Source: Escherichia coli (GTDB lineage: Bacteria; Pseudomonadota; Gammaproteobacteria; Enterobacterales; Enterobacteriaceae). From it: DNA of 64,000 nt. Position 1 is the stretch's first letter. Every line of letters starts with the position of its first letter. The translations under genes were made by a program, and so were the position numbers. Shown here one piece after another: positions 50,148-51,364 of this stretch. The notes beneath the pieces were generated by a model. The model searched no databases. It was not told the DNA's origin and worked only from the letters and a program-made list of their open reading frames with translations. Location: assembly GCF_030013205.1 (NCBI RefSeq), contig NZ_CP122648.1. One strand, 5' to 3'.

Positions 50148-50268
50148 TTGACAATACCCGGAGCGATTCGCCCGCAGCCAATGCTGACTGCGGGCGAAAG
50201 TGTAAAGCAGGTGCCTTACTACTCTGACCTGACAACCGGATATGCGGGGATTACTCCCCGCACAACGG

Positions 50269-50421
50269 CTACTTCTTCGGTTCGTAAGCGAGAACAGCCT
50301 TAAACTCAATATTACGTTCCTTCACCGTAAACTCACACAGCGAGTCTCCGACCAGAAGCGTAAATCCCAGCACCGTTAAACACAGCACTATGACTGCCAC
50401 AAGGGCATATTTCGTCAGCAT
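50269..50421 (-). CDS. hokE: Hok-family membrane toxin (HokE-like), copy 1
   Basis: 50 aa [50 protein letters not shown]. Confidence 0.85.
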
Positions 50422-50566
50422 GTTTATATTGCCTCCATGCGAAGAAGGGACTACCATCCGAGTTGTTGAGGTTCGGAGTGGCAGCCCCAGGATTGATAGA
50501 AATATCTCCTGGGGCTTCATCTTTCCAGACCTCAGAGTTAACCTGAAACCGGAAAGCTTCAGGCAC
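50333..50566 (-). CDS. mok-like overlapping reading frame (modulator of hok translation), copy 1
   Basis: 77-codon ORF in a different frame, starting upstream of hok and ending inside it ([16 protein letters not shown]...). Confidence 0.5.
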
Positions 50567-50630
50567 CCGCTGTTATCTTACCCTTCCTTAGCAAAATAAC
50601 TGTTTATTTATACAGCAAGTCCTGTTTCGG
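50560..50630 (+). ncRNA. predicted Sok-like antisense RNA, copy 1 (position inferred)
   Basis: inferred only from hok/sok architecture (antisense to the mok initiation region / hok leader); hairpin agtcctgtttcggact present; no promoter confirmed. Confidence 0.3.
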
Positions 50631-50670
50631 ACTTCTGTTGGCAACACTCGTTATTGCTCGTAAAACGAAA

Positions 50671-51131
50671 TCGCCCGCAGCCATCACTGACCACGGGCGA
50701 AAGTGTAAAGCAGGTGCCTTACCACCCTGACCTGACAACCGGATATGCGGGGATTACTCCCCGCACAACGGCTACTTCTTCGGTTCGTAAGCGAGAACAG
50801 CCTTAAACTCAATATTACGTTCCTTCACCGTAAACTCACACAGCGAGTCTCCGACTAGAAGCGTAAATCCCAGTACCGTCAAACACAGCACTATGACTGC
50901 CACAAGGGCATATTTCGTCAGCATGTTTATATTGCCTCCATGCGAAGAAGGGACTACCATCCAAATTGTCTGGTTTGGAGTGGCAGCCCCAGGGTTGATA
51001 GAAATATCTCCTGGGGCTTCATCTTTCCAGACCTCAGAGTTAACCTGAAACCGGAAAGCTTCAGGCACCCGCCGTTATCTTACCCTTCTTCAGCAAAATA
51101 GCTGTTTATTTATACAGTGAGTCCTGTTTCG
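50671..51131 (-). other. hok/sok-type type I toxin-antitoxin locus, copy 2 (ybdK-proximal)
   Basis: second unit of the tandem repeat; hok coding sequence differs from copy 1 by 3 synonymous substitutions; flanks carry indels. Confidence 0.7.
50772..50924 (-). CDS. hokE: Hok-family membrane toxin (HokE-like), copy 2
   Basis: 50 aa, protein identical to copy 1; the upstream mok-like frame is fused in-frame here (98-codon ORF 50772..51068). Confidence 0.85.
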
Positions 51132-51132
51132 G
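51062..51132 (+). ncRNA. predicted Sok-like antisense RNA, copy 2 (position inferred)
   Basis: inferred from architecture; extended hairpin agtgagtcctgtttcggacttctcact. Confidence 0.3.
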
Positions 51133-51364
51133 ACTTCTCACTCCTCATTTGATCAACTGAAGCTGAACCCGTTTTTTTCTGCATGCCTCAATCGTCAAAA
51201 TTCTTCGCCACCAGTCCGCACTGCCATAACTTGTCATATTGCAAAATGTAGCCAATTTGCTTCAGTCACCATCATCAAAAAAAGAAACATTCCAGAACTT
51301 CCGCATCTCGCCCAGTCGCTCCCACTTCTATACTGAATAGAAAACGCCAACATAAGAGAAACCT

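Follow-up and report, generated by a model that had tools for sequence, protein, structure and literature searches.

Tandem hokE/sokE modules between entD and ybdK: a common and copy-number-variable arrangement in Escherichia

Overview

The interval between entD and ybdK was analyzed in a 64,000-nt stretch of Escherichia coli DNA (assembly GCF_030013205.1, contig NZ_CP122648.1; hereafter the window). Very probably, this interval contains two structurally complete modules of the type I toxin-antitoxin system hokE/sokE, which lie head to tail on the minus strand and represent a common, old and copy-number-polymorphic state of the locus in Escherichia, with K-12 carrying a single module disrupted by the insertion sequence (IS) IS186. 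This reading is based on sequence and computation, namely the list of parts, their conservation, the predicted closed fold of the full-length hok mRNA, and the position of the antisense RNA Sok relative to the mRNA leader. The mechanism discussed below is inferred from homology to the hok/sok system of R1 (PMC9841398) and from the annotation of K-12.

Structure of the tandem repeat

The array is flanked by entD on the left (49377-50147, plus strand) and by ybdK on the right (51365-52483, plus strand), both of which are named in a RefSeq record that is 100% identical. By using a repeat search and pairwise alignment, two blocks of direct repetition were identified, D1 (50168-50466 and 50671-50969, 96% identity) and D2 (50470-50636 and 50972-51138, 95% identity). 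The offset between the copies is 503 nt in D1 and 502 nt in D2, which implies a 1-nt indel between the blocks. Together, the blocks define two units of approximately 470 bp, each read as a complete hokE/sokE module on the minus strand: unit A on the entD side (50168-50636) and unit B on the ybdK side (50671-51138). Homology ends in the alignment at an unrelated 34-nt spacer (50637-50670), which forms the junction between the unit B terminator and the upstream part of unit A. With about 469 aligned bases at 95% identity, a chance match is ruled out; no repeat was reported by Tandem Repeats Finder, whose 500-nt limit is exceeded by the 503-nt period.

The two units differ at 23 of 468 aligned columns (4.9%), distributed as follows: region ahead of the mRNA start, 6; leader, 7; coding sequence, 3; 3' untranslated region (UTR), 2; terminator hairpin, 5. 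Divergence is 2.0% within the coding sequence versus 6.3% outside it, where 20 differences (one of them a 1-nt indel) occur in approximately 316 nt. Both coding sequences, copy A at 50269-50421 and copy B at 50772-50924 (minus strand, 50 codons plus stop), translate into the same Hok protein, which is named HokE by the Prokaryotic Genome Annotation Pipeline (PGAP; WP_000956465.1) and matches Pfam PF01848 HOK_GEF over model positions 1-42 of 42 (E = 2.5e-8). The three coding differences (50377/50880, 50371/50874, and 50353/50856) are all synonymous third-position transitions.

The locus shares its position between ybdK and entD with the K-12 hokE/sokE pair (b4415/b4835), and the two window copies, which match K-12 HokE at 49 of 50 residues (V8A in K-12), fall into the hokE orthologue group as defined by this location and at least 96% protein identity to K-12 HokE. 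K-12 sokE is 60 nt long and agrees with the window units at 55-56 of 60 positions, and the K-12 leader has the same ATG and an open reading frame (ORF) in frame with hok, as in unit A. In contrast, K-12 has one unit only, in which IS186B starts 18 nt after the hok stop and separates it from the fold-back inhibitory (fbi) element and the terminator, whereas the window has two uninterrupted units, neither of which carries the K-12 Sok-tail haplotype. The original prediction had described a direct tandem repeat of about 503 bp between entD and ybdK, encoding an identical 50-aa Hok twice with three synonymous substitutions, surrounded by regions with substitutions and indels and belonging to the hok/sok type. 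Each of these points was borne out by alignment, by translation of both minus-strand ORFs, and by the Pfam, Rfam and K-12 sokE comparisons, and its description of K-12 as having a single hokE with IS186 beside it was also correct.

Distribution of the tandem arrangement

A duplicate of this kind might represent a recent strain-specific event or an assembly artefact caused by a collapsed or expanded repeat. Nothing specific points in this direction apart from the rarity of the window allele over 50050-51450, for which only 22 of 5420 records are at least 99% identical (most are 94-96% identical). On the other hand, the units differ at nearly one position in twenty, the finished genome NZ_CP028192.1 (CFSAN018748) contains a locus that is 100% identical and has both ORFs annotated as hokE, the same junction occurs in about two thousand complete genomes (counts below), and the tandem is also present in other Escherichia species. 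The identical finished genome, the junction count and the other-species tandems refute this explanation, whose probability is negligible.

The unit-unit junction, represented by a 117-nt query (50596-50712) and counted at a coverage of at least 80%, was present in 2102 of 5426 complete E. coli genomes (39%). By using the hok ORF as a query, 7979 places were detected in 5378 records, with a median of 1 and a maximum of 4 per genome, which limits multi-copy genomes to at most near 48%. In a sample spaced evenly over the ranking, the entD-ybdK interval was found mainly as a tandem, as a single intact unit, or as a single unit with an IS186-type break as in K-12, and both genes were labeled hokE by PGAP in every tandem genome opened. 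The arrays span 1-4 units between strains; for example, E. coli E7 (NZ_CP104523.1, interval 1515-3046 of L074) contains three intact hokE genes and a truncated one. Beyond the strains above, tandem hokE was also found in E. whittamii, in Escherichia sp. MOD1-EC7003 and in the GTDB representative of E. coli, and single hokE in E. albertii and Escherichia sp. E1V33, whose sole unit is 97% identical to unit A.

The arrangement has also been reported before. The adherent-invasive E. coli strain NRG857c carries Hok-2.1 and Hok-2.2, a hokE-homologous duplication without IS elements whose members are 504 bp apart (Bustamante & Vidal, PMC7232551). Like the PGAP-annotated double hokE genomes, it corresponds to the window in locus, in the distance between starts (about 503-504 bp) and in the absence of IS elements. 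A recent survey assigns 13.5% of the hok genes on Escherichia chromosomes to "islets", groups of 2-6 copies produced by local duplication (bioRxiv 10.1101/2025.08.07.668861), a category that includes the window tandem, and a tendency of type I loci toward tandem duplication had been noted earlier (Fozo et al. 2010, PMC2887945); hokE is not mentioned in Faridani 2006. Thus, the tandem hokE arrangement is common without being the majority state, and it is already annotated and published. The original prediction had implied that the locus is unusual and had named comparison with other E. coli genomes as a way to refute this; the implied unusualness was not supported by the comparison, even though most genomes lack the tandem.

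Several observations concern the surroundings of the array. The YbdK protein of the window is 99.2% identical to that of Escherichia sp. E1V33 and MOD1-EC7003 and 97.6% identical to that of the GTDB E. coli representative, which, together with the rare interval allele, may point to introgression of this segment or to a divergent lineage. In AR_451, Rb-50, FDAARGOS_1266, and E20, two genes for oxidoreductases of the short-chain dehydrogenase/reductase (SDR) family abut the array in the place of entD, and homology to this type of left flank breaks near window position 50167. An extra segment of approximately 600 bp between ybdK and hokE in E. whittamii (L016, 1430-2290) was considered as a degenerate third unit and rejected, since only two units were found by blastn; the segment encodes an ORF of about 130 aa unrelated to hok. 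Outside Escherichia, tandem pairs of Hok homologues with 76-82% identity and a distance of 520-535 bp were observed in Klebsiella spallanzanii (L032, 1393-2064) and Enterobacter sp. JUb54 (L052, 1968-2650), and a further pair lies 1.2 kb apart in L038.

Coding sequences and selection on Hok

Among 26 hokE copies from 16 genomes, the synonymous diversity (pS) was 0.105 and the nonsynonymous diversity (pN) was 0.013, corresponding to a pN/pS ratio of 0.12. The 50-codon ORF was intact in all 26 copies, and in 44 of 44 when further genomes were added. HokE variants are no more than 1-2 residues apart (V8A, which is the K-12 form, A42V, G25R, K41R, L18P, and a few others). The pattern of polymorphism supports the view that Hok is kept under purifying selection. 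The original prediction had drawn the same conclusion from the two window copies, for which the evidence is weak when judged from the window alone (three of three changes synonymous; 2.0% versus 6.3% divergence); the conclusion holds over the wider sample. Most of the tandem genomes sampled encode two Hok proteins that are 1-2 substitutions apart (V8A, A42V, G25R, or L18P with K41R), unlike the identical pair of the window, which is a minority state.

The Tyr46 codon TAC (50284-50286 in unit A and 50787-50789 in unit B, minus strand) lies within a TACG motif, the site of TadA adenosine-to-inosine editing that would convert Tyr46 to Cys. The sequence TACGAA at codon 46 was invariant in 26 of 26 copies, and in K-12 the hokE mRNA has been reported to be edited at this codon at a level of 40% (PMC5630033, PMC12214031).

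The history of the two copies is not one of simple descent. Variable sites in the coding sequence and 3' UTR are mosaic among units, and the nearest relatives of the window units shift by segment, which indicates exchange between units and between strains. The possibility that A and B are fixed, separately evolving paralogues was rejected on the grounds of this mosaic and of the occurrence of the Sok-tail haplotypes h1 and h2 (described below) in either slot.

Predicted hok mRNA and its leader

A full-length hok mRNA of approximately 400 nt was predicted for each unit on the minus strand, at 50160-50570 for unit A (RNAfold, alifold with 25 units, Rfam RF01794) and at 50663-51072 for unit B (RNAfold, terminator scan, Rfam RF01794); its 5' end was placed by similarity to the 5' end of R1 hok mRNA and by the start of the Rfam model. 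Full-length minus-strand matches to RF01794 cover 50413-50568 in unit A (81.9 bits) and 50916-51070 in unit B (81.7 bits), above the gathering score of 59. This family is called "sok antitoxin", and its matches lie on the hok-sense strand and end at the hok ATG. Judged from these matches, RF01794 is a model of the hok mRNA leader rather than of the antisense Sok, and strand calls taken from it are unreliable.

In the minimum free energy structures of both units, nt 1-10 of the hok mRNA (GCGGGUGCCU) are predicted to pair with nt ~355-364, ahead of the 3' hairpin. The latter segment is the fbi element, located at 50207-50216 in unit A and 50710-50719 in unit B. All 25 units compared by alifold retain this closure, the only changes being from G-C to G-U pairs, and the consensus fold of the same units retains the hairpin that sequesters the mok Shine-Dalgarno (SD) sequence as well as the 3' hairpins, with no disrupting changes. 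The predicted probability that the mok SD is unpaired is at most 0.01 in every full-length hok mRNA. The 5'-3' fold-back arrangement that defines hok mRNAs is therefore predicted for both units.

The ATG of the leader ORF, which is overlapped by Sok, lies with its GGAAAG SD sequence 98-99 nt upstream of hok, and both ATG and SD are invariant in 25 of 26 units. In unit A, this ATG (at 50520) opens a mok-like leader ORF of 83 codons that runs in frame to the hok stop (50269-50520, minus strand) and reads through the hok SD and start. The equivalent ATG in unit B opens an ORF of only 22 codons ending in TAG (50954-51022, minus strand), and this shortening is caused by the 1-nt deletion at 50971/50972. 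Three leader frame classes could be distinguished: 83 codons in frame (unit A and K-12), 62 codons in the +1 frame (h2 units), and 22 codons. The last class, present in 8 of 26 units, includes unit B and every h1 unit without a compensating insertion in the hairpin loop. It has been shown for R1 that the translation of mok matters and not its product (PMC9841398), and the variability of the leader frame fits this finding.

When the 3' end was truncated in silico, the mok SD of unit A was predicted to become accessible (mean probability unpaired 0.61, with formation of the 5' tac hairpin) versus a value of 0.08 for unit B. Among the other units, the h2 class and most h3 mRNAs open upon truncation and most h1 mRNAs stay closed, with exceptions.

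Predicted SokE antisense RNAs

By alignment to the K-12 sokE noncoding RNA (b4835) and RNAfold, a plus-strand antisense RNA was predicted in each unit: SokE-A of 60 nt (50465-50524) and SokE-B of 59 nt (50968-51026). The curated K-12 record places sokE, a noncoding RNA of 60 nt, on the strand opposite to hokE, with its 5' end 44 nt upstream of the hokE ATG. Both window RNAs are predicted to fold into a free 5' tail of 13-14 nt, a long hairpin and a U-rich end; in Sok-A the hairpin is formed by GCCCCAGG...CCUGGGGC and followed by UUCAUCUUU. Sok-B differs from Sok-A at four positions within the first 10 nt and at one position in the hairpin.

A putative sok promoter (TTGCCT, 17 nt, TACCAT) was read from the sequence and from its position relative to K-12 sokE at 50429-50457 in unit A and, on the same basis, at 50932-50960 in unit B (plus strand), ending 7 nt before the Sok 5' end in each case. 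It contains 8 of 12 consensus bases, which is under the threshold of the scan, and its hexamers are invariant in all sampled units. Overlap with the leader and mok start, a putative promoter, a tail, and a terminator hairpin, the features by which a cis-encoded Sok was recognized, are thus all predicted in both units. For hok itself, a -10-like TAAGAT was assigned by position only at 50575-50580 and 51077-51082, and no convincing -35 element was found.

PGAP predicts a "hypothetical protein" of about 89 aa at 50893-51101 on the plus strand, antisense to the hok leader and start. The same ORF is called in most genomes opened, often flagged as frameshifted or with internal stops, and probably reflects a misannotation of the Sok strand.

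Are both modules functional?

Several points weigh against two fully working modules. The leader ORF of unit B terminates (TAG) 29 nt short of the hok ATG, with about 14 nt left to the hok SD, and in R1 Hok is no longer translated when mok ends prematurely ahead of hok (PMC9841398). For the unit B mRNA after truncation, a mok SD that stays paired is predicted, with small energy margins. The 3' hairpin of unit A (50168-50197) has no U-tract, whereas unit B has an intrinsic terminator (50671-50700), detected by the terminator scan, followed by a UUUCGUUUU tail with a U-tract. Both the hok and the sok promoters were assigned by position and homology only, and a sigma-70 consensus scan of 50100-51400 returned no promoter at its threshold. 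Although the NCBIfam HokA and Hok-family models match the peptide at 1e-10 to 1e-13, the scores are under the curated cut-offs (49 versus 89 bits and 40 versus 73 bits), so that the family assignment rests on Pfam, Rfam, and PGAP naming. At the level of function, the intact chromosomal loci hokA, hokB, and hokC have been found to cause no post-segregational killing and to show no activation by rifampicin (Pedersen & Gerdes 1999, as cited in bioRxiv 10.1101/2025.08.07.668861).

In a rival reading, one or both units would be evolutionary relics, from which RNAs are perhaps still made, with unit B translationally dead and the conservation of the locus due to recent gene conversion. Such an explanation deserves some weight, although it is rather doubtful. 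It gains from the early leader stop, the predicted closure of the truncated unit B mRNA, and the failure of chromosomal hok loci in killing assays, and also from a substitution in the membrane helix (L18P) of the unit with the same haplotype in O157:H7 and F3398. Moreover, the divergence between the A and B coding sequences within genomes (0.022) is lower than the overall coding diversity (0.035), which, like the mosaic coding sequence, is consistent with gene conversion. On the other hand, intact ORFs in all sampled copies and a low pN/pS at a synonymous diversity too high for merely recent conservation argue for continued constraint. In addition, the short-leader haplotype is old, widespread and common to several species, the fbi closure, the SD hairpin, the hexamers of the putative sok promoter, and the TACG motif are conserved in both slots, and overexpressed HokE is toxic, being treated in the same preprint as one of the previously characterized toxic Hok proteins and used as a control in its toxicity assay (bioRxiv 10.1101/2025.08.07.668861).

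Two structurally complete modules thus remain the preferred reading, within which unit B, with its truncated leader ORF, may be the less readily translated copy. The original prediction had called the locus possibly fully functional; both hok ORFs are indeed intact, and the predicted folds and leaders make full function of both copies less certain, especially for unit B, whose leader ends before the hok SD, without proving unit B dead. In a separate observation, the ybdK-proximal hokE copy of O157:H7 SS17 and F3398 combines the 22-codon leader with L18P in the membrane helix and K41R (WP_001303983.1), and this copy may be inactive in the O157:H7-type lineage.

Divergent Sok tails and hok targets

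Differences between the units are concentrated in the Sok tail and its hok target. Six of the 23 differences fall within 15 nt in the alignment (50460-50474 in unit A and 50963-50976 in unit B; permutation p = 0.0036), covering the Sok 5' tail and the hok target loop; four of the six are in the first 10 nt of Sok, and the remaining two fall in the gap that separates the sok -10 box from the start of Sok. Since the units differ most in the Sok tail and hok target, each Sok probably recognizes its own hok mRNA best. For the tail/target duplexes, predicted energies were -43 and -51 kcal/mol in cognate combinations, and non-cognate combinations within the window gave -30 to -32 kcal/mol.

Over 26 units, the nucleotide diversity of the 16-nt Sok tail was 0.229, in comparison with 0.018-0.043 in neighboring elements and 0.086 in the untranscribed upstream region. 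The tails could be assigned to a few haplotypes: h1 (CCAAACC-AGACAATTT), h1' (...CCCGAAC..., with a near variant ...CCCAAAC...), h2 (TACCTACCCAAACCTGAAC), and h3 (CCGA[A/G]CC[T/C]CAACAACTC). Haplotypes cross species boundaries, with h3 in E. coli, E. albertii, and Escherichia sp. E1V33, and h1 in E. coli and E. whittamii. The slot in the array is not fixed for h1 and h2, each of which was found in both positions, and h3 was seen solely in the slot next to entD and in single units; O157:H7 carries the same pair as the window, with h1 beside ybdK and h3 beside entD. An h3-type tail was detected in 1694 genomes (~31%), nearly always at one place per genome; this is the only usable haplotype count, as the h1 megablast query is unspecific and also matches h1' and h2 at 92-97%. 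Different haplotypes in each unit were found in 16 of 17 multi-copy genomes, a count that is suggestive only, as these genomes are not phylogenetically independent; the exception is Rb-50, which has the same tail haplotype twice, and the three intact units of strain E7 have three different ones. Covariation was seen at one base pair of the target hairpin, which is A-U in 18 units and G-C in 6, and a YUNR U-turn motif was noted by eye in two of the target loops, as CUCA in h3 and as CUGA in h2, and is absent from that of h1.

It is conceivable, if doubtful, that the hokE array of 1-4 modules is under selection for regulatory insulation through divergent alleles of Sok-tail and hok-target recognition. 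A further tentative part of this idea is that the alleles are old haplotypes shared between Escherichia species and that each Sok controls its own hok only. With similar reserve, the units may also differ in how easily they are activated, given the three leader frame classes and the class-dependent opening after 3' trimming.

Alternatively, the diversity may be neutral: any mutation alters both partners of a cis-antisense pair, so that complementarity is kept and the modules are not insulated from each other. The chances of this alternative are about even. That cognate pairing is kept automatically in cis-antisense pairs is an established principle, the non-cognate duplexes are still predicted to be stable, Rb-50 has one and the same tail haplotype in its two units, and the upstream non-transcribed region is itself fairly diverse. 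It accounts less well for a tail diversity that exceeds the upstream value by a factor of 2.7 and the values of adjacent elements by factors of 5-12, for the presence of a few discrete haplotypes common to E. coli, E. albertii, E. whittamii, and other Escherichia instead of a smear of single changes, for the mixing of haplotypes in nearly all multi-copy genomes although the flanks are ~96-98% identical, and for the covarying pair in the target hairpin.

Proposed mechanism and related systems

By analogy with R1, each unit would be transcribed into an mRNA of approximately 400 nt, whose 5' end would pair with the 3' fbi element while the mok SD is locked in a 5' hairpin, leaving the transcript translationally inert. 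Slow trimming of the 3' end would remove the fbi region, the 5' end would refold, and the start of the leader ORF would be exposed. Ribosomes on the leader ORF would then open the ribosome-binding site of hok, resulting in the 50-aa membrane toxin and membrane damage. Constitutively made SokE (59-60 nt) would pair through its single-stranded 5' tail with the leader around the mok start, which would block translation and mark the duplex for cleavage by RNase III. In addition, TadA editing of Tyr46 to Cys probably raises Hok toxicity.

The R1 system resembles the hokE units in its Hok/Gef toxin, the mok leader with a sequestered SD, the 5'-3' closure of the mRNA, the antisense RNA of about 60 nt with a free 5' tail, a terminator hairpin and overlap with the mok start, and the protective 3' hairpin that remains after truncation (PMC9841398). 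Differences were also found. R1 hok/sok is plasmid-borne, whereas the hokE locus is chromosomal. The distance from the leader ATG to hok is 98-99 nt in hokE units versus about 58 nt in R1, the leader frame is variable in hokE units (83 aa in frame, 62 aa in the +1 frame, or truncated at 22 aa) and fixed in R1 as an overlapping frame of 70 codons, and residue 46 is an editable Tyr in hokE and a hard-coded Cys in R1.

Copy-specific antitoxin recognition has been tested for some tandem type I loci, as in work on Sib/Ibs and Zor/Orz. The ldrABC/rdl, ibs/sib, and zorO-orzO/zorP-orzP loci also contain modules of a toxin and an antisense RNA arranged head to tail in one intergenic region, with copy numbers that vary between strains (PMC2887945, PMC11264685). 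They differ from hokE in toxin family and RNA architecture.

Other RNA elements in the window

Between fepA and entD (49386-49468), a palindrome similar to repetitive extragenic palindromic (REP) sequences matches naRNA4 below the gathering score, and an adjacent match to ES036/CssrF reaches 42 bits (gathering score 37.6); both are ordinary intergenic repeat elements. Rfam matches above the gathering score were also obtained for a cspA-type thermoregulator leader (2983-3341), the rnk leader (16411-16519), STnc490 (18397-18520), and STnc70 (21035-21128), which are ordinary enterobacterial RNA elements.

Implications

With regard to the hokE locus, K-12 is an atypical, IS-disrupted variant, and conclusions drawn from K-12 about "inactive" chromosomal hok genes do not carry over to wild strains. 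If the insulation of tandem modules is real, the locus would show that antisense-RNA specificity in a tandem toxin-antitoxin array can be subject to diversifying or balancing selection in nature. If confirmed, it would offer a simple natural system for the study of how cross-talk is avoided among duplicated antisense-regulated toxins and of copy-specific activation thresholds.

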